DNA of 64,000 bases from Candidatus Nomurabacteria bacterium (GCA_023898465.1 CP060223.1:896001-960000), one strand, 5' to 3'; numbered from the stretch's first letter, positions 4,101-61,180 are shown. Numbers and translations are program-made. The notes: generated by a model not told the origin, from the sequence alone.

Positions 4101-5090
4101 CTAGGCAACGGTTTCCCGCTGCGCAAGGAACTGCGTGATTTCGTCACGCGAAGGGACCGAGGATCCCCCGAGACGACTGATCGTAATAGCTGCTCCAGCC
4201 GCGGCCCAACGCAGGGCTTCTGACTTGGACTTGCCATCGAGCAGTGCCCCGATGTAACAGGACAGGAAGGTGTCACCGGCGCCGGTCAAATCCTTGATCG
4301 GCGTATCAGCAAACACTTCGCCGTTGATGCTCTGTTCTCCACCGTTGTACAGAGTGGCACCTTTGGGGCCTCGAGTAACCAAGACCTCCATATGCCGGCC
4401 CTGCCCAATGGCTTGGAGCTCGCTCACCGTACTGAAGCCGAAGCCTCGGAGCAAATGCGCTTCTTCTTCCTCGTTCACGGCCAAGAGGTCGGTGCAAGAG
4501 AGAAGCTGACGCAGGGCTGTGTGGCGACGACGTTCTTCGAGCTCATTACTGAGCTCATACACCAGACTGATCCCGGGATTCAGAATGTTCATCGACGGAG
4601 CAGCTTGACGACCACCCGCTTCAAACATCGCCAGCACCAGAGGCGCATCTGCGATCTGGACACCCGTACCCACAGTCATGTGAGGACGAACTTGATCCAC
4701 CTGTCGGCGAATCAACTCCGCACCACGCTCCATCGCGTCCGGAAGATAGTTGCCCTTTCCAGCGATGATGCGTTGTGCACCGTCCTTGGCTGAGAGACTG
4801 ACCGTGATGTTCGTCCTTTCCCGCAAAGGGAGAGGAAAAGCATCCAACTCCAGCCTACGCAGCTCGGCTTCGAGGTAGCCGGCGTAGCGATCATCACCGA
4901 CCGTACACAGCAGCTTGACCAACTGCCCGCTACGAAGCAGTGCGCGCGCGACGTTGAACGAAGAACCTGCTGCAATCAAGTCAAAGTCACTTGCTGCAAC
5001 CTGTTGCTTCACCACGTCGCTTGTCCCATCAAAACCAGAGACCGCCATTTCCATGTTGGCACTAAAGCCAACCAAAACAGTTCGAGACAT
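4101..5090 (-). CDS. PfkB-family carbohydrate kinase (ribokinase fold)
   Basis: C-terminal DLTGAGDTFLSCYIGALLDG signature. ATG at 5090 is preceded by GGGGGAA. GC-rich compared with flanking genes. Confidence 0.8.
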   Translation of the reverse strand: MSRTVLVGFSANMEMAVSGFDGTSDVVKQQVAASDFDLIAAGSSFNVARALLRSGQLVKLLCTVGDDRYAGYLEAELRRLELDAFPLPLRERTNITVSLSAKDGAQRIIAGKGNYLPDAMERGAELIRRQVDQVRPHMTVGTGVQIADAPLVLAMFEAGGRQAAPSMNILNPGISLVYELSNELEERRRHTALRQLLSCTDLLAVNEEEEAHLLRGFGFSTVSELQAIGQGRHMEVLVTRGPKGATLYNGGEQSINGEVFADTPIKDLTGAGDTFLSCYIGALLDGKSKSEALRWAAAGAAITISRLGGSSVPSRDEITQFLAQRETVA

Positions 5091-28213: not shown

Positions 28214-28227
28214 TGGTGGACCCTACC
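28214..28227 (-). repeat. duplicate of the last 14 nt of tRNA-Ala (ggtagggtccacca) preceded by a GC hairpin
   Basis: Exact copy of the 3' acceptor strand plus CCA of the tRNAs at 28263 and 29946. The adjacent ccccgc-cca-gcgggg hairpin replaces the T arm. Confidence 0.7.
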
Positions 28228-28262
28228 CCGCTGGGCGGGGTCAGCTCTGTATGTTGAGATCT

Positions 28263-28338
28263 TGGTGGACCCTACCGGGCTCGAACCGGTCACCTCCGCG
28301 TTGCAAACGCGGCGCTCTACCAAATGAGCTAAGGGCCC
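28263..28338 (-). tRNA. tRNA-Ala (anticodon UGC), CCA encoded
   Basis: Reverse complement gggccct...; G3:U70 present. Anticodon arm ccgcg-uuUGCaa-cgcgg. Confidence 0.9.
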
Positions 28339-29945: not shown

Positions 29946-30021
29946 TGGTGGACCCTACCGGGCTCGAACCGGTCACCTCTTCCATGCCATGGAAGCGCTC
30001 TACCAAATGAGCTAAGGGCCC
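29946..30021 (-). tRNA. tRNA-Ala (anticodon GGC), CCA encoded
   Basis: Reverse complement gggccct...; G3:U70 present. Anticodon arm cttcc-auGGCau-ggaag. Confidence 0.9.
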
Positions 30022-33940: not shown

Positions 33941-34924
33941 ATGTTACGTTTACCCTCAACTCGATTCTGGATCATCTCGGGTTTAAGCATGCTTATTGTA
34001 CTTGGCGCAGTAATACCTGCCCGAGCGGAGATCTTACCAAACTGCGAAAAAACACTTTACAAAGTTGAGCTCAATGGAGATCTCGATTGCCCAGATGGAA
34101 CAAACAATTGTATTGATCCAAATGATTACATACAAACTGTACACGGTGATATCGAACAGGTAATGGTCAACCGGAGCTGTGGTTTCAATGACTTCATTCA
34201 GCTCTTTGTGAATCTCGCAAACTGGGGCTTGGCTATTATGGGTGCCCTGGCTGTTTTCTTCTACATGTACGCGGGCTTCCAATTCTTAACTGCCGGCGGT
34301 CGGAGCGAGAATGTCGAGCAGGGTAAAAAAATTCTCTGGGGCACCACTATGGGAGTGATTATCATGCTGACTGCGTGGGCCGTTATTGGTTTCTATATTG
34401 TTGCTACAACTGGCAGTAACCAAGGCTTTGTTTTTCCTAATGATCCTAACTTCCTAGCCCCTTGGTTTGGTCAGACCGAAACTTGTCGACAGACCTATAT
34501 AAAAAATTACGACCAATCTCAGTGTGGACAAAACAATCTTCATATAAACTGTTCAGACCCGATTGATGGAAGCGATGGACCTGTTACTCGTTTGCAAAGC
34601 ATACTTACTCAGCGAGCTTGTAACCCTGGAGGAATAGACGGCTGTTTTGGTTCAAACACTGAAAGTGGGCTCCGACAATTCCAGAGAGTGAATTGGCGCA
34701 GTGGAATTATTGAAGACGGGGTAGTGAATGCCGATGATTGGAGCACCCTACTCAACACTTCTACTGCGTATGATTGTTCAGTCCCGCTAGGTTGCTGCAT
34801 CAATCCTGATGAACCGAGTCTTTGTTATGATCAAATTCCAGAGGCCTACTGTAACCAGAATGGTTGGACCTTCCTACCAGATAGCTGTGCGAGTTACGAC
34901 TTTGACTGTGAAGGACCAAGTTAA
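33941..34924 (+). CDS. T4SS-pilin-like (TrbC/VirB2-type hairpin) membrane protein fused to a Cys-rich domain and a peptidoglycan-binding-like domain
   Basis: Signal peptide (...IPARA/E). Hairpin motif YAGFQFLTAGGRSENVEQGKKILWGTTMGVIIMLTAW. C-terminal GCFGSNTESGLRQFQRVNWRSGIIEDGVVNADDWSTL resembles the PG_binding_1 pattern. Contains 20 Cys residues. Confidence 0.6.
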   Translation: MLRLPSTRFWIISGLSMLIVLGAVIPARAEILPNCEKTLYKVELNGDLDCPDGTNNCIDPNDYIQTVHGDIEQVMVNRSCGFNDFIQLFVNLANWGLAIMGALAVFFYMYAGFQFLTAGGRSENVEQGKKILWGTTMGVIIMLTAWAVIGFYIVATTGSNQGFVFPNDPNFLAPWFGQTETCRQTYIKNYDQSQCGQNNLHINCSDPIDGSDGPVTRLQSILTQRACNPGGIDGCFGSNTESGLRQFQRVNWRSGIIEDGVVNADDWSTLLNTSTAYDCSVPLGCCINPDEPSLCYDQIPEAYCNQNGWTFLPDSCASYDFDCEGPS

Positions 34925-34937
34925 TTTTCTATTGCAT

Positions 34938-35300
34938 ATGAATACACTACGAAAAAAACGCTTACCACTTATTCTCATGATCGCCGGACTCGTCCTCATG
35001 CCGCTGAGCGCCTTTGCGCAAAGCGGCTCGGCTGTAGCCATACCTAACCCGATTTCGTGTGGTAACTTAATTTGTCTCTTTGTAAACCTCATGCGCCTTA
35101 TTCTGGCCGGCTTAGGTGTCTTTGGCATGGTGATGTTTATTTGGGGAGGCTTTCTCATGCTTACTTCTGCGGGTAATGCTGATCGAATTCAAAAAGGAAA
35201 AGAAACCTTAGTGTGGTCAATTCTTGGTATTTTAGTAATTCTCGGCAGTTGGATACTCCTCAAATCAGTGATTGATGCAATTAACGGGGTTACTAACTAG
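34938..35300 (+). CDS. T4SS-pilin-like small membrane protein (120 aa)
   Basis: Signal peptide ...SAFAQS. Hairpin IWGGFLMLTSAGNADRIQKGKETLVWSILGILVILGSW. Confidence 0.6.
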   Translation: MNTLRKKRLPLILMIAGLVLMPLSAFAQSGSAVAIPNPISCGNLICLFVNLMRLILAGLGVFGMVMFIWGGFLMLTSAGNADRIQKGKETLVWSILGILVILGSWILLKSVIDAINGVTN

Positions 35301-35385
35301 GTTTGACGAAGTAGGAAGAGAGAGGTACGCTATATTCGACATAAGGTGAAGGAACACTTCACAATTGAAAGGGGGTGAGAAACAC

Positions 35386-35751
35386 ATGAAACAACGTACA
35401 CGACTGCTCGGCACACTAGCAGCATTTGCTATACTAGCACTTCCGTTGCTTGTTTCCGCCCAATCTGCTTTCACCGTAGAAAACATCGGTGGATCAGTTG
35501 GTCTCGGTACTGCTGACCTCAAAGATACCGTCATCAACATCATTCAATGGGTGCTTGGTATCCTCGCACTCGTTGCTGTCGTTATGATCATCATTGGTGG
35601 TTTCCAGTGGATGACTGCTGGTGGAAACGACGAAAAGGTGGAAAAGGCCAAGAAGATTATCTCAGCCGCGGTAATTGGTCTTATTATCATCTTGTTGGCT
35701 TGGGCTATTGTCATCTTCGTCGCAAATACAACGGCGAATGTCACTACCTAA
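35386..35751 (+). CDS. T4SS-pilin-like small membrane protein, paralog P1 (121 aa)
   Basis: SD GGGGGTGA. Signal peptide ...VSAQS. Hairpin IIGGFQWMTAGGNDEKVEKAKKIISAAVIGLIIILLAW. Tail ANTTANVTT. Confidence 0.7.
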   Translation: MKQRTRLLGTLAAFAILALPLLVSAQSAFTVENIGGSVGLGTADLKDTVINIIQWVLGILALVAVVMIIIGGFQWMTAGGNDEKVEKAKKIISAAVIGLIIILLAWAIVIFVANTTANVTT

Positions 35752-35777
35752 TCCAATCACGTATTTGGACTTTTAGA

Positions 35778-35808
35778 ACATACCCAGCTCACTGCTGGGT
35801 ATGTTTTT
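35778..35808 (+). terminator. rho-independent terminator of P1
   Basis: 11-bp stem acatacccagc/gctgggtatgt, 5-nt loop, then tttt. Confidence 0.8.
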
Positions 35809-35873
35809 ATTCAAAAAAGCCTTACTATGCTATAGTAGTATATATCTTTGAGAAGAAGAGGGGGTGAATATAC

Positions 35874-36230
35874 ATGAAGAAAGCTTTAATCGCAGTCGGT
35901 ACTTTGGCGCTCGTTGCTATGCCAATGCTTGCATCAGCCCAATCTGCTTTCACCGTTGAAAACGTTGGAGGATCCGTCGGTCTCGGTACCGCTGATTTGA
36001 AGGACACCGTCATCAACATCATTCAATGGGTGCTTGGTATTGTCGCCTTAATCGCTGTCGTTATGATCATCATTGGCGGTTTCCAGTGGATGACTGCTGG
36101 TGGAAACGACGAAAAGGTGGAAAAGGCCAAGAAGATTATATCTTCAGCCGTAGTCGGTTTGATTATTGTGTTACTCGCCTGGGCAATTGTTGTATTCGTT
36201 GCAAACACAACCTCAAACGTTACCGCCTAG
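35874..36230 (+). CDS. T4SS-pilin-like small membrane protein, paralog P2 (118 aa)
   Basis: SD GAGGGGGTGA. Near-identical to P1 and P3. Tail ANTTSNVTA. Confidence 0.7.
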   Translation: MKKALIAVGTLALVAMPMLASAQSAFTVENVGGSVGLGTADLKDTVINIIQWVLGIVALIAVVMIIIGGFQWMTAGGNDEKVEKAKKIISSAVVGLIIVLLAWAIVVFVANTTSNVTA

Positions 36231-36249
36231 CGTACACTTCGCAAATTCT

Positions 36250-36286
36250 GCAAAAGCCCTACCTTATACGAGGGCTTTTGCTTTTT
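36250..36286 (+). terminator. rho-independent terminator of P2
   Basis: 11-bp stem gcaaaagccct/agggcttttgc, then ttttt. Confidence 0.8.
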
Positions 36287-36356
36287 CTGCGCAACTTTTA
36301 TTTTTCATGGTATACTGAATGCATTACATCTTTAGGTAAAGGAGGTGAATGTCAGA

Positions 36357-36725
36357 ATGACCATAAAACGATTTCTTCCCTTAGCGCTACTCGGACTTAC
36401 CTTGGTATTACTGCCTTCTACTGTAGCAGCTCAATCAACCGCCTTTACGATCGAAAATATTGGTGGATCAATCGGTCTCGGTACCGCTGATTTGAAGGAC
36501 ACCGTCATCAACATCATTCAATGGGTGCTTGGTATCCTTTCATTAGTAGCCGTTGTTATGATTATTTTTGGTGGCTTTACCTGGATGACTGCCGGAGGTG
36601 CTGAAGATAAAGTTGATCAAGCCAAGCGTATTATCACCGCTGCAGTAATTGGTCTTATCATCATCTTGTTGGCTTGGGCTATTGTCATCTTCGTCGCAAA
36701 TACAACGGCGAACGTTACCACTTAG
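36357..36725 (+). CDS. T4SS-pilin-like small membrane protein, paralog P3 (122 aa)
   Basis: SD AAAGGAGGTGA. The ATG at 36357 is preferred over the GTG at 36345. Tail ANTTANVTT. Confidence 0.7.
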   Translation: MTIKRFLPLALLGLTLVLLPSTVAAQSTAFTIENIGGSIGLGTADLKDTVINIIQWVLGILSLVAVVMIIFGGFTWMTAGGAEDKVDQAKRIITAAVIGLIIILLAWAIVIFVANTTANVTT

Positions 36726-36743
36726 GCTACACTAGAATCAAAA

Positions 36744-36780
36744 CACAGACCTCTCCATATTTGGGGAGGTTTTGTGCTTT
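36744..36780 (+). terminator. rho-independent terminator of P3
   Basis: Stem core cctctcc/ggggagg with flanking extension, followed by a T-rich run. Confidence 0.65.
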
Positions 36781-55128: not shown

Positions 55129-55195
55129 CTCGTACTTGCCAAATCCCATGTCGTAGCCGAAGCATTGAGCTTCGGCGGCTTCAATTGATAAAAGA

Positions 55196-55254
55196 AAACC
55201 CCGACCACAGCGCTAGTCCTCGTGCATAGACACGTGGATAGATGTGATCGGGGA
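55196..55254 (-). terminator. hairpin terminator, homologous copy 1 (shares the 19-mer aaaccccgaccacagcgct with 55901-55919)
   Basis: On the minus strand, ccccgatcaca...tgtggtcgggg is followed by a T-run. Confidence 0.55.
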
Positions 55255-55264
55255 AAGTACGGAG

Positions 55265-55843
55265 CTACTGGTAGATTGACTTCACCTGACCCCAACTCCT
55301 GCTGAGGGTTGGCACCGGCCCGATTGTACCATAGGTCCGGAAGAGCCAATCATACGGCTTTTCTTCGCCTGCACTGTAGGCGGTGCCGCCAGGGTATTCG
55401 CATCCACCTTCTACCCGTCGTTCGGTGGCCCAACCGTTGTTTGAATGCGAAACAGGATGAAGGTAGTAGGTGGCGCCAGGCTGAATGGTCACACCACCGA
55501 AGTCGAAACTGATCCAGTTGTCCCCGCCCGACTCAACGTCTTGCGTCGCAACAGCCAGAACACTCTCGCCAGGCACCACTGAGTTCTGGAGAAAGAGCGT
55601 CACCGTACCCGCGGCTGGGTAAAAGAACAGCTCAACACCGCACAAGTAGTCCATCGTCGGCGTGAAAGACTGCAACAAACAACTTGAAAGTTCTTCCTCT
55701 GGAGTGCAGTACATACTGTGTCCAAAAGTCGGACCGATGATTGGTTCACAGCTCTGGTCGAGGTCACCGCAGGGTGCTTGCGCATTCGCGCTGCTTGCAC
55801 ACAGCACCACCAAAGCAAAAACGAGGCCACTGAAACGCGACAT
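55265..55843 (-). CDS. hypothetical secreted Cys-containing protein (192 aa), GC-rich
   Basis: SD GGGAGGTG. Signal peptide MSRFSGLVFALVVLCASSANA/QA. No family recognised. Confidence 0.45.
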   Translation of the reverse strand: MSRFSGLVFALVVLCASSANAQAPCGDLDQSCEPIIGPTFGHSMYCTPEEELSSCLLQSFTPTMDYLCGVELFFYPAAGTVTLFLQNSVVPGESVLAVATQDVESGGDNWISFDFGGVTIQPGATYYLHPVSHSNNGWATERRVEGGCEYPGGTAYSAGEEKPYDWLFRTYGTIGPVPTLSRSWGQVKSIYQ

Positions 55844-55900
55844 GAGACACCTCCCACTTTGTTTGTAAGGAGCCTTGATTAGCTTTACTGCTTCAATAAT

Positions 55901-55943
55901 AAACCCCGACCACAGCGCTGCGCAAGCACAGCCGTGGCCGGGG
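55901..55943 (-). terminator. hairpin terminator, homologous copy 2
   Basis: On the minus strand, ccccggccac...tgtggtcgggg is followed by ttt. Confidence 0.55.
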
Positions 55944-55951
55944 AAGTACTG

Positions 55952-56470
55952 TCACCAGCCATCCATAGTGGTTGACTGGTAATGGAAGTTGCGCTCCTCG
56001 ATCATGCCGGGATCAACGAGACGATCTCCATAGTAACGCCAGTAGTAAGCCCAGCGTCTCATATCGTCGAAGCTCAGACGCCTCCCAGTACAAGAGAGAC
56101 ATAGGTCACCGGCCTCCAAGGTGCGGCAACGCAAATCCCAGTAGAGAGAACCCTCCGTATCGAGTGGGTATTGACGCCACTGACCCCTGCACCAAGCAAG
56201 AGCGTCGCGCAGATCACGGTCATTGCGCTGATGCCACTCCTGCACCAACTCAGCTTGGAACTCGGGCTCGAGGGTCACTCCCTGGGAAAGAGTGATGAGA
56301 AGATTCTGGGCGCTCCGATCTCCGCCGGCCTGACCCTGAATCGTTCTCCAGGGCTTGGCCTTCATAAACGCGAGGTCCCAGACCTTCTCTCGGTCGCTCC
56401 GAGCATCAGCCTGAGCTAATGTGGCGAAACCGAACAGCATCAACACTAGGACGGTAACCCGAATACGCAT
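55952..56470 (-). CDS. hypothetical secreted Trp/Arg-rich protein (172 aa), GC-rich
   Basis: SD AAGGAGGAG. Signal peptide MRIRVTVLVLMLFGFATLAQA/DA. Confidence 0.45.
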   Translation of the reverse strand: MRIRVTVLVLMLFGFATLAQADARSDREKVWDLAFMKAKPWRTIQGQAGGDRSAQNLLITLSQGVTLEPEFQAELVQEWHQRNDRDLRDALAWCRGQWRQYPLDTEGSLYWDLRCRTLEAGDLCLSCTGRRLSFDDMRRWAYYWRYYGDRLVDPGMIEERNFHYQSTTMDGW

Positions 56471-56518
56471 GCATCTCCTCCTTGTTTCATGTGCGGTTGT
56501 CGATGTACAGCTGCGTAC

Positions 56519-56547
56519 CGTATACTACGGGTAAGCAACCTTGTCAA
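56519..56547 (-). promoter_or_regulatory. candidate promoter of the 55952..56470 gene
   Basis: Minus strand TTGACA-17 nt-TATACG. Confidence 0.5.
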
Positions 56548-56586
56548 TCCTTATCCTTCGGAATTCAAGTTTATAACATTAGCATT

Positions 56587-56961
56587 ATGGGTAGTTTCAT
56601 CGAAATCAACGACACGCTCCAACTTACTACTGAGCAAGGCTTTCCCTCGGAGCTTACTTTAGAGAAACACTTGAAAAAGGCGTTCACTGTTGAGGATTTT
56701 AAAGACCAAGTCTTTGAATTTCACCACAAGCCGGACCTGCGGATCTACCACCTTAAACCTACTCGAGTATTTCTCGTTCATAACATTGATGGTAAGTGGT
56801 TGTATTGGGGCCACGCCATGATACTTGAAGAAACGCTCCACGCAGAAACGAAAACAACTTCCGGGAAATTTATCATCACAAAAATTTATTCACCCGAGCA
56901 CCAAAGAACAATGAGCACTATCGAAGTAAGCGAAGGCAAGGAGTATCCTTTTGATGAGTAA
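56587..56961 (+). CDS. hypothetical protein (124 aa)
   Basis: ATG at 56587 (MGSFIEINDT...). Overlaps the xth start by 8 nt. No motif recognised. Confidence 0.5.
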   Translation: MGSFIEINDTLQLTTEQGFPSELTLEKHLKKAFTVEDFKDQVFEFHHKPDLRIYHLKPTRVFLVHNIDGKWLYWGHAMILEETLHAETKTTSGKFIITKIYSPEHQRTMSTIEVSEGKEYPFDE

Positions 56962-57724
56962 ATCTCTAGTGCTGCAATCGTGGAACATTAACGGTATTCG
57001 GGCTGCAGTGCGTAAGGGCTTTACCGATTATCTCAAAAAAGAAAAACCTGATGTAATTGGTCTGCAGGAAATAAAAATAAGCGAAGAAGCGCGCTTGGCT
57101 ACTGAGTTTGATTTTGGAGGATATGTGGAGCATTGGCACTCAGCAAAAAAACCTGGATATTCCGGCACTGCGGTGTTGGTAAAAAACGGTATCGCACATA
57201 CAGCTCTGCCGAAACTAGCCTGGGACGACGAAGGACGAATTCAAGCCATCGATATGGGGAAGTATATTTTCCTTAATATCTACTTTCCTAATGCCAGTAA
57301 TGACGGCTTGAAGCGCCTAGCCTTTAAGATGCAGTGGAATGAAAAGCTGCTTAACTACCTCAAGCAACTTGAAAAGAAAAAACCACTTGTCATCACGGGT
57401 GACTATAATGTGGCACATGAAGAAATTGACCTAGCTCGACCGAAAGAAAATACCCAGAGCCCGGGCTTCACTCCTGAGGAGCGTACCTGGATGACGAAGT
57501 TTCTCAAAACAGGTTACGTTGATACTTGGCGTGAAGCCAATCCGAAGAAAGTACAATACACCTGGTGGAGTCAGCGCGGTGGCGCTCGCAGCCGAAATGT
57601 AGGCTGGAGGATTGACTACTTTTGTGTGAGTCAAAAATTCCTCAAACAAACAACTAAACCGGCTATCCTCGACCAAGTGATGGGCTCAGATCACTGTCCG
57701 GTTAGTTTAATAGTATCCTCATAG
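56954..57724 (+). CDS. xth: exodeoxyribonuclease III
   Basis: LQSWNINGIRA, GLQEIK, and a C-terminal GSDHCPV. Confidence 0.9.
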   Translation: MSKSLVLQSWNINGIRAAVRKGFTDYLKKEKPDVIGLQEIKISEEARLATEFDFGGYVEHWHSAKKPGYSGTAVLVKNGIAHTALPKLAWDDEGRIQAIDMGKYIFLNIYFPNASNDGLKRLAFKMQWNEKLLNYLKQLEKKKPLVITGDYNVAHEEIDLARPKENTQSPGFTPEERTWMTKFLKTGYVDTWREANPKKVQYTWWSQRGGARSRNVGWRIDYFCVSQKFLKQTTKPAILDQVMGSDHCPVSLIVSS

Positions 57725-57937
57725 CCGCTGCCTCCGGGCTTTGGCGATGATGAAGTAACGTTTATTCATCTCATATTCCATTGACATCTGCTTTGACTCA
57801 AGGTAATTCAGCTAACCATAGAAATACTGTGGTTAGCTCCTTGAAACAAGTCGAATTTGGAGTACTGCAACGCCTGCAGACAGCCAAAATCGACGCTTCC
57901 ATTAGCGTGACACTGAGCACGTTAAGTGGAGGTTATC

Positions 57938-58894
57938 ATGTCACGGCAAGAAACCTGTCCTCGATGTGTAAAGAAAAACGTTTACGGCGCTCCTCGCCTG
58001 AGAATCACCACTGGAATCACTTGGCTTTGTTACATTGCCTTGTTTACGGCGCTCCTCTGTCTCGCCATTTTCCTGGGAGAGCCAAGCTCTTTCAAGAAGA
58101 GCATTGTGCTCATGTTCATCATCGTTAACGCGGCAACTCTGCTAGGCGCCGCTCACGACCTCCTGATACCCAAGCGGGTTTGGATATGGCGCGATAGAGG
58201 AGACAGTGTACATATTCACAAGGAAGCTCCAACGCTTCCCGACTTCGACTTCTGTGGATTCAAACATCCACTCGTTATGGCCTGGATCAACCGGCCGTGG
58301 CGTCGAGCTGACCTAAGTTGGGGTGCTGACACCTCGGGCATGTGTCTTCCTGAAGTCACTATGTCTTGGACACGCAAACGTCCATACTTCATCGTCACCT
58401 ACCACCAGCTTGGGACGATAACGCAGACTATCCGGATTCGGATAACTGAACCATCCACCATGCTCGACACCCTGAACTGGATTCGCTTCGCACCCAACCC
58501 TTTCAACTTTCAGGCGCACCTCGAGTCGCTAGATAATGAGAGGAGAGTCTCCCATACACTACACGAGCAAACAGAGTGGCTTACCTGGCTCAATGAACTC
58601 GTGTGCGCGCTGTACGTGGCTACCGAGCGACGGCGTACCTCGCTTGGCCAATCTCCTCATGGTCAGTTTGTTCACGCTTATCTCGGCCACCTGCTTGGCT
58701 TCATGCGAGTCCACAACATAACAGGAAGGGAAAGCCCAAACCATGCGGTCCGGGTAGAGGATGAGGCAACACAGATCGCCGACACCATCGCGTCAGCTAA
58801 GCAGGAGGGGGGTAAACACTGGGCAGAACGAGCTGCGGACAAGGTTTGGGAAAACCGAAATCGAGCAGCGCTTGAACCCGTCACTGAGTCGTGA
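57938..58894 (+). CDS. hypothetical 2-TM protein with large cytoplasmic domain (318 aa), GC-rich
   Basis: SD GTGGAGGT. N-terminal CPRC, then two TM helices, then KRVWIWRDRGDSVHI. Confidence 0.5.
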   Translation: MSRQETCPRCVKKNVYGAPRLRITTGITWLCYIALFTALLCLAIFLGEPSSFKKSIVLMFIIVNAATLLGAAHDLLIPKRVWIWRDRGDSVHIHKEAPTLPDFDFCGFKHPLVMAWINRPWRRADLSWGADTSGMCLPEVTMSWTRKRPYFIVTYHQLGTITQTIRIRITEPSTMLDTLNWIRFAPNPFNFQAHLESLDNERRVSHTLHEQTEWLTWLNELVCALYVATERRRTSLGQSPHGQFVHAYLGHLLGFMRVHNITGRESPNHAVRVEDEATQIADTIASAKQEGGKHWAERAADKVWENRNRAALEPVTES

Positions 58895-58935
58895 CAATTC
58901 TACGCGCCCTGATCTCTAGGAGATTGGGGCGCTTT
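58891..58935 (+). terminator. 45-nt repeat/terminator, copy 1
   Basis: 13-bp hairpin gcgccctgatctc-tag-gagattggggcgc followed by ttttt. 44 of 45 nt identical to 59944-59988. Confidence 0.8.
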
Positions 58936-59100
58936 TTACATTGACGAAATTTTCTGCGCTTGCTAGCGTGAGTCCGCATGAGGAAATGCCTCACGTAAGC
59001 TCTTTACAATAGAGCAATCCTGTAACAAGCCGACGCAAGTAAGGCAATTTGCATCCGCTTGTTTCCCGCCTTGAAAAATCAGGGCCGGTAAGGAGTAAAA

Positions 59101-59931
59101 ATGACCTGCGCGAAAGAATCTACCAAAGAGTTGGATCTCACCAACTACCTACCTCTTCCCAGGGGCGGCTTGCGATGGACGGTCTCCACGCTATGCTTTT
59201 CCCTTGCTGCTTTTCTGGGACTCTTCTTGCTCTTCAAAATGGCCGTCAATAGTGAGGGGCTATGGTGGTCACGCCTGTTCTACGGCTGCCTGATTATCGC
59301 CATCTTAGTCTCACTACTTGGATTTTTTGGCTTGAAGCTACTCCGATTCAACTATGCGTATTGGAGAAGAAATGTGAGGGGTTACTACATCTCCTATCCG
59401 CAAATGGATCGAGTGTACTATCGTGGCGAGCGGGCCAAGGAAAGCTTGGCACTCGTAGAGATGCACCTAGCTCTGGGCGGTTGGCGCCATCAACTTGGGA
59501 GCTTTCATCGAGGCTTTGTGGTTACCTCGCGAGACACTTCCGCGGACTCCATCTTTTGGTATGGAGTAAAAATCGTTCAACAATCACCACAACCTTCAGG
59601 GCTTCGCGTGATCGTCTACAGTCACCGGAAAAAGGAACAAACACCACCAATGAGCCTACGGCATGCCAGCGTGCTTATCGGTAAGTTATGCCGCAACCAG
59701 AGCTCCTTGGAACTTGAGTTTGCAACCTTTCTCACCAGTGAAGATGGGCTCGTTAACGCCTGTATTCGCTTGCTTGAACGGATAAAGACAACCTCGCGCT
59801 TATCCTCTACACAAGAAGGTAGGGCCTTTGCTCGAGATCTTGCAACTGCGGCACTCAGTCACTCCATTCGTGGAACTCGGGAACACCGAGAACTTGTGGA
59901 TCTGCAAGAATACTGGGGTCGAACCAGGTAG
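59101..59931 (+). CDS. hypothetical 2-TM protein, divergent paralog of 57938..58894 (276 aa), GC-rich
   Basis: SD TAAGGAGT. Two TM helices, then FNYAYWRRNVRGYYI. The C-terminal stretch GLVNACIRLLERIKTTSRLS compares with ELVCALYVATERRRTSLGQS in the upstream gene. Confidence 0.5.
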   Translation: MTCAKESTKELDLTNYLPLPRGGLRWTVSTLCFSLAAFLGLFLLFKMAVNSEGLWWSRLFYGCLIIAILVSLLGFFGLKLLRFNYAYWRRNVRGYYISYPQMDRVYYRGERAKESLALVEMHLALGGWRHQLGSFHRGFVVTSRDTSADSIFWYGVKIVQQSPQPSGLRVIVYSHRKKEQTPPMSLRHASVLIGKLCRNQSSLELEFATFLTSEDGLVNACIRLLERIKTTSRLSSTQEGRAFARDLATAALSHSIRGTREHRELVDLQEYWGRTR

Positions 59932-59943
59932 ACTCACTTCTCA

Positions 59944-59988
59944 GTGACAATCCTACGCGCCCTGATCTCTAGGAGATTGGGGCGCTTT
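59944..59988 (+). terminator. 45-nt repeat/terminator, copy 2 (abuts the convergent tyrS stop)
   Basis: Same 13-bp hairpin followed by ttt. Confidence 0.75.
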
Positions 59989-61180
59989 ACTTTATCTGCA
60001 CAAACCGTCGCTTCCCAACCTGAAGCAAGGGTGCCTTTTTTGCATCCAATTCCTTTGCGCCATCTTTCTCTACCTTGCCATCAATACGGACCGCTCCTTG
60101 CTCAAGCATGCGACGTCCTTCTGACTTTGATGGCACCAACTTTGCGCTGACTAAAATTTCTAACAGCGTGCTTTTTTGCTTCAGGCTGAACTCTGGCACC
60201 TCGTCTGGAGTGGCACCTTTTTGAAATACATTTTGAAATTCAGTTGCCGCCTTATCCGCATCGTTTAAGGAATGATATTGTGCAACCAGAGTATGGGCCA
60301 GCTTTGCTTTGACGTCGCGGGGATTATGGCCTGACTTCAAGCCTTGCGCCATTTCCTCGATCTCGGATAATGGTAAACGACTTAGTAAGGTAAAAAACGT
60401 AACAATCTGCTCGTCAGGAATACGCATGAGCTTGCCATACATATCTTTAGGCGTGTCAGAGAGCAATATTGCGTTGCCATAACTCTGACTCATCTTGCGC
60501 TTCCCGTCAGTACCGACGAGCAAGGGCATAATTACTAAATCTTGCGGAGACTGTTTTGCAGCCTCTTGAAGTGGGCGCGCCTGCAGCTCGTTAAATGTTT
60601 GATCACGACCAATCACTGTCACGTCAGCTTTCAACATTACCGAATCATAACCCTGCAAAAGGGGGTAGGTAATTTCGTGCAATCCAATCTCTTTGCCCTC
60701 TTTCATGCGTTGCTGAAACATGTCCCGCTCAAGCATGCGCTGGACGCTCACCTGAGAGAGTAAGTGAAGAAAATCCTCGGCTGACATTTTATCGTACCAC
60801 TCAGCATTTGAACGTACTTCAACCTTCTTAATATCAAGTATTTTACCTAACTGTGTAACATATTTCTTGGCCAGGCGATGTACTTCTGCGGCCGAACGAA
60901 GCGCTCGACGCTCAGCTCGATCAGTTGGATCACCGAAACGGGCCGTAAAACCACCGATTAGGAACTGGATAGTGTGACCTGCTTCTTGAAATTGGCGCAA
61001 CTTTTCATAAATAACTGCGTGACCCAAATGGAGGTCGGCAGTGGTCGGATCAACTCCGTGCTTAATCTTTAGCTTCTTGCCTGAGGCTAGCTTCTTCTCT
61101 AAGGATGCTCGAACTACGACCTCCGCAACGCCTCGGTCAAGTAAATCGCTTCTCATTGATTGGGCCTGTTTTTTCGCCAT
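59987..61180 (-). CDS. tyrS: tyrosine--tRNA ligase
   Basis: DPTTADLHLGHAV (HIGH), KMSQS (KMSKS), and a C-terminal S4 domain. Confidence 0.95.
   Translation of the reverse strand: MAKKQAQSMRSDLLDRGVAEVVVRASLEKKLASGKKLKIKHGVDPTTADLHLGHAVIYEKLRQFQEAGHTIQFLIGGFTARFGDPTDRAERRALRSAAEVHRLAKKYVTQLGKILDIKKVEVRSNAEWYDKMSAEDFLHLLSQVSVQRMLERDMFQQRMKEGKEIGLHEITYPLLQGYDSVMLKADVTVIGRDQTFNELQARPLQEAAKQSPQDLVIMPLLVGTDGKRKMSQSYGNAILLSDTPKDMYGKLMRIPDEQIVTFFTLLSRLPLSEIEEMAQGLKSGHNPRDVKAKLAHTLVAQYHSLNDADKAATEFQNVFQKGATPDEVPEFSLKQKSTLLEILVSAKLVPSKSEGRRMLEQGAVRIDGKVEKDGAKELDAKKAPLLQVGKRRFVQIK

Follow-up and report, generated by a model that had tools for sequence, protein, structure and literature searches.

Two orphan gene units sharing a near-identical terminator-like repeat in a variable islet of a Candidatus Nomurabacteria genome

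Phage morons, in the concept of Hendrix and Juhala, are extra genes located between genes that are adjacent in relatives, and are marked by expression signals of their own and a deviating base composition (PMC2920897). The arrays termed CALIN are integron cassette arrays that lack an integrase, so that a nearby integrase is unnecessary (Cury et al., 2016; PMC4889954). Their attC sites comprise R and L boxes, an unpaired central spacer and extrahelical bases on the folded strand, and very small genomes are without integrons (PMC4889954). The locus considered here lies in a window of 64,000 nt (the whole stretch of DNA analyzed, to which all coordinates refer) from Candidatus Nomurabacteria bacterium (GCA_023898465.1 CP060223.1:896001-960000), a metagenome-assembled genome carrying the NCBI label ‘Candidatus Nomurabacteria’, with a contig of 1,082,586 bp; it is a small genome of the candidate phyla radiation (CPR), or Patescibacteria. 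Between xth and tyrS it carries two genes, p1 and p2, each followed by one copy of a 45-nt repeat (R1 and R2) that folds into a terminator-like hairpin. The genes are most aptly described as new accessory genes, singletons within a flexible islet, whose terminator is of an ordinary kind but duplicated. We assign a probability of about 0.6 to the reading that they are lineage-specific, moron-like gene units and that the identity of R1 and R2 stems from recent copying of a terminator.

By analogy, p1 and p2 would work like a pair of phage morons outside a prophage. As with morons, they lie between two genes that abut in a relative (L083), predicted terminators are present, GC content differs and the hotspot is variously filled; unlike morons, they lie in no recognizable prophage, are flanked by housekeeping genes (xth, tyrS, PBP1, dnaN/dnaA), have no sigma-70-like promoter detected for their units and share one terminator between both units. 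A phage origin was considered and rejected, as IMG/VR holds no relatives or hairpin match and PHROGs gave no match. The locus resembles a CALIN in having two or more sites on one strand within 4 kb of each other (1,053 nt for the R copies), but the 29-nt R stem is a continuous 13-bp helix without R or L boxes, spacer or extrahelical bases, the leaders are 165-213 nt long and the genome is of about 1 Mb. The attC core sites R'' (RYYYAAC) and R' (GTTRRRY) were found on neither strand in 58860-58970 or 59913-60023, and the integron idea was rejected, the core sites being missing and the structure wrong.

Other described elements also share features with the locus. With intrinsic terminators R shares a GC-rich 13-bp stem, a 3-nt loop, a T-run, a position 0-26 nt past the stop codon and a strand asymmetry due to G-U pairs, differing in that R2 has three uninterrupted T's and that the same 45 nt are used by two adjacent unrelated genes. 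Flexible genomic islets likewise have conserved flanks, a content that differs in each relative and an enrichment in orphan and envelope-type genes, whereas the present islet is only about 5 kb, has no tRNA or integrase anchor and adjoins replication origin genes. Repetitive extragenic palindromic (REP) sequences and bacterial interspersed mosaic elements (BIME) are also GC-rich imperfect palindromes 3' of genes, but two copies of R are detectable in the 71 kb searched and both are local. The shared terminator is a modest curiosity and not a new system.

The repeat between xth and tyrS

The segment and its flanks comprise the following features.

57725-59986, plus strand: lineage-specific segment of 2,262 nt, from the xth stop to the tyrS stop, holding p1, p2 and both repeat copies
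56954-57724, plus strand: xth (exodeoxyribonuclease III family; PF03372), left flank of the indel, with homologues in L083 and L086
57725-57937, plus strand: xth-p1 spacer, probable p1 leader, 213 nt, highly structured
57938-58894, plus strand: p1, orphan open reading frame (ORF) of 318 aa with a Shine-Dalgarno (SD) sequence; H6760_04770, annotated as hypothetical protein
58891-58935, plus strand: repeat copy R1, consisting of a 13-nt 5' spacer, the hairpin (58904-58932) and TTT
58936-59100, plus strand: p2 upstream spacer or leader, with four predicted hairpins
59101-59931, plus strand: p2, orphan ORF of 276 aa with the SD AAGGAG; H6760_04775
59944-59988, plus strand: repeat copy R2 (hairpin 59957-59985), directly abutting the stop of the convergent gene tyrS
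59987-61180, minus strand: tyrS, right flank of the indel, where the conserved backbone begins

R1 and R2 are direct repeats on the same strand, identical at 44 of 45 positions, and none of 100 shuffles of the window gave two matches to the repeat. Each copy forms a 29-nt hairpin, GCGCCCTGATCTC-TAG-GAGATTGGGGCGC, with 13 bp (including 8 G-C and 2 G-U pairs) and a 3-nt loop. The stem is followed by TTTTT in R1 and by TTTACTTTAT in R2, whose T-tract is weaker, with three T's before an interruption. In 71-nt contexts the minimum free energy (MFE) is -29.5 kcal/mol for R1 and -26.4 kcal/mol for R2 (z about -4.8), and a consensus scan classes both hairpins as terminator-like. R1 begins 1 nt before the p1 stop codon (58892-58894), which it includes, while R2, beginning 13 nt past the p2 stop, has 2 nt in common with the tyrS stop codon (59987-59989); the stem sets in 10 nt past the p1 stop and 26 nt past the p2 stop. 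The near-identity of the copies, their 13-bp hairpin and T-run, and their placement at the p1 stop, behind the p2 stop and against the tyrS stop had all been described in an earlier reading of the DNA made without database searches (hereafter the sequence-only reading), and this description was confirmed, coordinates included.

Read on the minus strand, the stem has A-C mismatches in place of its two G-U pairs; these form a symmetric 2x2 internal loop that splits it, and there is no T-run. Because the stem is perfect on the plus strand and split on the other, the hairpin is directional and reads the same way as both ORFs, and R is predicted to be a strong, unidirectional Rho-independent terminator. 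A minor 5-bp hairpin (GTGAC/AGTGA) lies upstream of the main stem in both copies, its 3' arm being the start of the repeat and its 5' arms differing; it is possibly fortuitous. Window genes other than p1 and p2 also end in comparable sites of hairpin and T-run, and these terminators are all unlike R.

Logan contigs assembled for other samples match the window at 100% identity and end inside the 36-nt exact repeat, one of them (1,077 bp) corresponding to window 58906-59982. An assembly artefact was considered and rejected, since independent Logan contigs show all three junction types.

The interval between xth and tyrS, which the sequence-only reading had proposed comparing in relatives, holds nothing in L083, a Logan contig from another sample whose TyrS is 90% identical. 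There, xth and tyrS are convergent, with interlocked stop codons (TTAG) and a 4-nt gene overlap. DNA identity to L083 is 85% over 57470-57702 and 87.5% over 59998-60165, and between these aligned flanks 29 nt in L083 stand opposite 2,295 nt in the window. The last codons of xth and of tyrS are homologous between the window, L083 and L086, and segment 57725-59986 is therefore a clean presence/absence difference of 2,262 nt. A TA target-site duplication at the indel ends was also considered but is uninformative, because the stop codons force TA at both junctions.

The repeat could also be thought of as one member of a dispersed, genome-wide palindromic family, REP/BIME-like or uptake-sequence-like. 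Its sequence is a GC-rich imperfect palindrome situated 3' of genes, assembled contigs break off within it, and the search for it covered 71 kb of the 1.08-Mb genome. Within those 71 kb (the 64-kb window and 7 kb beyond), however, no more copies with up to five mismatches were found, neither GTDB representative genomes nor JGI metagenome contigs nor IMG/VR contained an exact match to the 22-mer core of R, a degenerate pattern of the stem matched a single, unrelated GC-rich contig in public collections, and the other terminators of the window are all different. We consider such a family quite doubtful; that the 45-mer might be a ubiquitous REP-like element had been named in the sequence-only reading as an outcome that would speak against it, and neither the 71 kb nor the public collections yielded such copies. 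That contig, from a metagenome, carries in a recR/desaturase context (L092:1520-1548) a terminator with a perfect palindrome, GCGCCCCGATCTC-AGA-GAGATCGGGGCGC, whose stem departs from that of R solely at the two G-U wobble positions of R; the likeness is probably a coincidence.

Three observations argue that the near-identity of R1 and R2 reflects a recent copy and not conservation. The copies are 98% identical, including spacer (12/13) and loop (3/3), where conservation exceeds what a terminator needs, whereas the genes flanking the segment are 85-87.5% identical between the window and L083. Second, inheritance combined with selection is not how terminators behave in this genome region, because tandem paralogs at 35365-35751, 35874-36230 and 36345-36725, which retain 77-83% DNA identity, carry three unrelated terminators (at 35775, 36250 and 36747). 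Third, a pair of hairpins designated T_A and T_B (described below) provides another case of a shared terminator in the same islet. The p1 and p2 coding regions are unalignable, as against the 98% identity of the 45-mer, and of the two options offered by the sequence-only reading, recent spread of the module or selection upon it, the former is the better one.

On this basis, the insert would be lineage-specific accessory DNA within a turnover hotspot between tyrS and galT, a few kb from dnaN/dnaA. It would consist of two self-contained units, each with a structured leader, SD, ORF and terminator, encoding orphan two-helix membrane-hairpin proteins that appear unrelated to each other. R1 would end transcription of p1 and thereby separate it from p2, and R2 would end transcription of p2 at the stop of the convergent essential gene tyrS, presumably preventing antisense read-through. 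The recent copying may have occurred when the p2 unit was added beside p1 by recombination or insertion at the terminator of p1, which would have been duplicated in the process; alternatively, both units may have come from one donor that reused the same terminator. The order of these events is inferred, and acquisition may have taken either one step or two.

Kinship, coding capacity and leaders of p1 and p2

The sequence-only reading had called p1 and p2 tandem divergent paralogs. Were they ancient paralogs of one two-helix family, the terminator would have been held identical by purifying selection or gene conversion. The two genes have the same orientation and the same coarse layout, with an N-terminal tail of about 22 aa, a first transmembrane (TM) helix, a loop of 5-10 aa, a second TM helix, then aromatic and basic residues next to the membrane and, C-terminally, a domain of about 200 aa. 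Single-sequence AlphaFold2 (AF2) models also have the same order of elements, from the two TM helices through a beta-rich middle to a helical bundle at the C-terminus, at mean confidence (pLDDT) values of 42 (p1) and 56 (p2) that are too poor to count. Against this, no method gave a sequence signal. BLASTP of p1 against p2 returned E=0.72; local and global BLOSUM62 alignments, made for the whole proteins and separately for their TM parts and C-terminal domains, scored at z -0.9 to +0.8 relative to 500 shuffles; and the profile comparison that the sequence-only reading had named as its own refutation test found no homology, hhalign giving a probability of 0.2% at an effective number of sequences (Neff) of 1, there being no homologues from which to build profiles.

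The likenesses that had suggested kinship did not exceed chance by any of these methods. The ‘late segment’ matches at 7 of 20 positions and was unreported by BLAST, and the Trp/Tyr-basic juxtamembrane motif belongs to a class of aromatic and basic residues following a TM helix that is a generic trait of membrane proteins. Moreover, the conserved spacer and loop of R, unneeded for termination, point to recency and not to selection, genuine paralogs in this region do not keep their terminators, and the whole block is absent from the relative with a 90% identical TyrS. On sequence, p1 and p2 appear unrelated, their paralogy is not supported, and ancient paralogs with a terminator maintained for so long are quite improbable.

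As proposed in the sequence-only reading, both ORFs are preceded by their own SDs (GGAGG for p1 and AAGGAG for p2, 5-7 nt upstream) and both are GC-rich (0.536 and 0.509, against 0.470 for the window). Their GC content at third codon positions (GC3) is 0.577 and 0.534, most ORFs of at least 150 aa in the window lying at 0.36-0.50. Hydropathy agrees with the two TM helices claimed for each protein, placing them at residues ~23-52 and 54-77 in p1 and at ~26-51 and 54-84 in p2. Membrane topology is thus predicted for both, and by the positive-inside rule the C-terminal ~240 aa of p1 would be cytoplasmic. For p2, the PGAP (prokaryotic genome annotation pipeline) annotation of NCBI starts at Met47, giving 230 aa with one TM helix and without an SD, whereas a start at ATG 59101 has the AAGGAG SD and an extra first TM helix, and an independent Logan gene call likewise gives 276 aa.

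That p1 and p2 are a decaying or non-coding foreign fragment, with hairpins left as inert remnants, would be in keeping with their lack of homologues, with the low AF2 confidence and with a codon-position periodicity that is below that of tyrS, xth and galT in both ORFs, p2 especially (periodicity measure R1=0.50). However, the open stretches on one strand extend over 322 codons (p1) and 279 codons (p2), against 135 +/- 29 in composition-matched simulations, of which 4 of 2000 attained 276 codons and none of 2000 attained 322 (maximum 310). The SDs are well placed, each protein has two clean TM helices, the terminators are intact, and the sequence of p1 and p2 is identical in independent samples (Logan contigs). 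This reading is very unlikely.

Both proteins are orphans within the collections searched. A word-indexed search of 5.8 billion clustered proteins returned self-matches alone for p1 and p2, and an exhaustive HMMER scan of 1.84 billion representatives, which covered p1 (p2 being covered by the word-indexed search), returned p1 itself and P0123, a repetitive junk ORF (E=4e-4). Neither protein had a significant match in Pfam, NCBIfam, PADLOC (0 families), PHROGs or PDB sequences; the lone match at E<=1 was of p1 to Pfam GH115_C (E=0.005), at 17.1 bits below the 24.1-bit cut-off. Foldseek of the p2 model against PDB returned nothing at E<=0.001. The surroundings consist of glycogen metabolism genes, galT, xth, tyrS, PBP1 and dnaN/dnaA, and the gene tables list no integrase (PF00589-type genes included), transposase, Cas1-like or defence gene within 10 kb on either side of the segment. 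The proposal of a membrane sensor or defence-type pair thus found no backing, with no significant family or PDB match and with neighbours that form neither a defence nor a mobile island; evidence for a sensor, defence or integron role was found in none of these searches. The proteins offer no functional lead at present, and our guess is that they are dispensable envelope proteins belonging to a strain-variable repertoire.

The spacer upstream of p1 is strongly structured, window 57725-57945 folding at an MFE of -81.2 kcal/mol compared with -53.0 +/- 3.8 for shuffles (z=-7.4). The hairpin at 57810-57838 that the sequence-only reading had noted is real, although its stem is 12 bp and not 9, and it is lengthened by pairing of 57798-57803 with 57839-57844. 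A 15-bp hairpin (57895-57909/57918-57933) sequesters the p1 SD, whose bases 57927-57932 have pairing probabilities of 0.96-1.0, and the AUG pairs with 57785-57787 in a long-range helix. The predicted fold suggests translational control of p1 and makes the spacer a candidate cis-regulatory leader; neither it nor the R hairpin has an Rfam match. The p2 spacer folds at z=-3.4 and contains ATTGACG 4 nt after R1. A likeness between the two upstream spacers was considered and rejected, as their alignment shares CATTGAC alone. The ‘promoter-like boxes’ of the sequence-only reading were not recovered, a sigma-70 scan having found no promoter in either spacer, though promoter rules in CPR bacteria may differ.

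The tyrS-galT islet and a second duplicated terminator

The p1/p2 segment is part of a wider variable region that also contains the second pair of related terminators.

55129-59986, no strand assigned: hypervariable tyrS-galT islet, holding the p1/p2 segment, with content that varies between relatives
55904-55943, minus strand: T_A, terminator hairpin behind o172 (55952-56470), a conserved gene for a secreted protein, with a 19-mer common to T_B
55199-55253, minus strand: T_B, the other copy of the T_A terminator, after the orphan gene o192 (55265-55843), with the 19-mer common to T_A

Five farther relatives (L001, L086, L087, L088 and L090; TyrS identity 63-68%) were compared at the locus. 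All keep the backbone T2SSE-DHH-TsaE-YidC-RnpA-dnaA-dnaN-(DciA)-PBP1-tyrS ... galT-glgA-APH-GH57-GH57-glgA, and the genes between tyrS and galT differ in each.

L090: an extracytoplasmic function (ECF) sigma factor and DUF5667
L087: DUF2142 and small ORFs
L088: two tRNAs and a 227-aa protein
L086: glyoxalase, DUF2142, a 176-aa secreted protein, xth and others
L001: 900 nt of non-coding DNA and a 225-aa secreted protein

In tblastn against these loci, o172, o124 and xth have homologues, and p1, p2 and o192 have none. Because the tyrS-galT content differs in each relative and p1, p2 and o192 are without homologues there, the p1/p2 segment sits in a small hypervariable islet, of ~5 kb, adjoining origin-proximal genes. 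A tRNA-anchored island was considered and rejected, as the islet in the window is without tRNA and tRNAs occur there in L088 alone. Directly after tyrS, that relative has a tRNA to which ARAGORN assigns a four-base anticodon (gcaa; L088:11276-11353), followed by tRNA-Val(GAC), and Rfam confirms both tRNAs. The non-coding DNA of L001 (L001:8168-9072, from tyrS to the o172 homologue) spans ~900 nt without an ORF of at least 90 aa; it contains GC-rich hairpins such as GGGCGGGGGTCCCGCTAGAGCGGGAGATCCCGCCTC and matches no Rfam family at the gathering score. Between window 56587-57724 and L086:9317-10539, xth and the adjacent 124-aa gene have 82-84% amino acid identity, compared with 68% for TyrS and 42% for o172, and the islet looks mosaic, or the xth block looks exchanged between lineages.

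The genes o172 and o192 are adjacent and unrelated (BLASTP E=0.34), and their terminators T_A and T_B share GTACTT(T)CCCCG on the 5' side and the exact 19-mer AGCGCTGTGGTCGGGGTTT. In L001 (TyrS 64% identical) the o172 homologue is followed by an orthologous terminator (L001:9783-9830) with a 5' arm like that of T_A and a T-tail like that of T_B. Such a chimeric relationship would result from entry of o192 at the ancestral terminator, or beside it, with duplication of that terminator. The C-terminus of o192 (55265-55300) ends in ...SRSWGQVKSIYQ*, and the 176-aa secreted o172 homologue of L086 (L086:9160-9206) ends in ...SRTTWGRIQKQYH*; the motif common to these otherwise unrelated proteins might be a tag for sorting or the 3' end of a gene that has been retained.

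The two cases together raise the possibility of structure-directed insertion of cassettes, in which the hairpin would be both terminator and integration target and would be duplicated by an exchange resembling attC x attC, or by a staggered cut of the kind that duplicates CRISPR (clustered regularly interspaced short palindromic repeats) repeats. Both cases occur in one 5-kb islet, R1 and R2 around the p2 unit and T_A and T_B around o192, and each time the copied stretch begins a few nt before the hairpin and reaches the third T behind it. The chimerism of T_A and T_B relative to L001 leaves the ancestral 5' arm in T_A and the ancestral tail in T_B, and the p2 unit is represented by the 1,077-bp contig, which has the repeat at either end, as a contig assembled from a circle also would. 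The pattern also seems to be rare, since no locally duplicated intergenic hairpin was found in about 1.09 Mb of loci from other genomes, and here it accompanies orphan genes both times. However, the 10 kb to the left and to the right contain no gene for an integrase, a transposase or a Cas1-like protein, attC core sites are missing, the stem is uninterrupted and has neither an unpaired spacer nor extrahelical bases, each case comprises just two units, the relatives' islets are without duplicated hairpins, and the units own long leaders, unlike promoterless cassettes. Ordinary homologous (Campbell-type) recombination or local duplication would fit equally well. We regard structure-directed insertion as unlikely. 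In its more general form, this CPR lineage would add orphan genes singly at terminator hairpins and duplicate the hairpin by long structured target-site duplication or att-like exchange, in the absence of a nearby recombinase gene; R1/R2 and T_A/T_B may then be two footprints of one mechanism. We give such a landing-pad process rather little credence.

Several points weigh against the reading of p1 and p2 as recently assembled, moron-like accessory units. Insertion in the window lineage and precise deletion in the L083 lineage are indistinguishable, both gene ends being at homologous positions in all genomes, so the polarity adopted here is provisional. The matching layout of p1 and p2, in models of low confidence, could still reflect homology too distant for detection by sequence. 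The orphan status of p2 comes from the word-indexed search, the exhaustive scan having been of p1, and the codon periodicity of p2 is weak. Raised GC content is not special to the orphan genes, as the CofD-family (859-1860) and PfkB-family (4101-5090) genes of the window have GC 0.55-0.57 and GC3 0.57-0.61. With 71 kb of the 1.08-Mb genome searched, R may belong to a dispersed repeat family, and termination at R1 and R2 is predicted from their sequence alone. Finally, neither unit has a promoter-like site, and p1 could be co-transcribed with xth.

With these points taken into account, recent copying of a terminator between lineage-specific units is still the reading we prefer, and the locus offers a clean example of a minimal CPR genome gaining or losing strain-specific genes at a 5-kb hotspot beside the origin-proximal backbone, with terminators that would shield the convergent essential gene tyrS beside orphan membrane and secreted proteins. 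If the pattern of duplicated terminators recurs genome-wide, it would point to hairpin-directed gene capture in bacteria without classical integrons and would provide a handle on the origin of CPR orphan genes.

Two further observations concern more distant parts of the window. The region 34809-36772 encodes four tandem small membrane proteins, three of them the paralogs at 35365-36725 used above for comparison of terminators; we take these proteins to resemble the TrbC/VirB2-type pilin-like proteins common in CPR genomes. At 28214-28248, 15 nt from the first of the tRNA-Ala genes (28263-28338 and 29946-30021), the end of these genes is partly repeated over 35 nt (74-77% identical), and this copy resembles the tRNA-fragment footprint of integrative elements.

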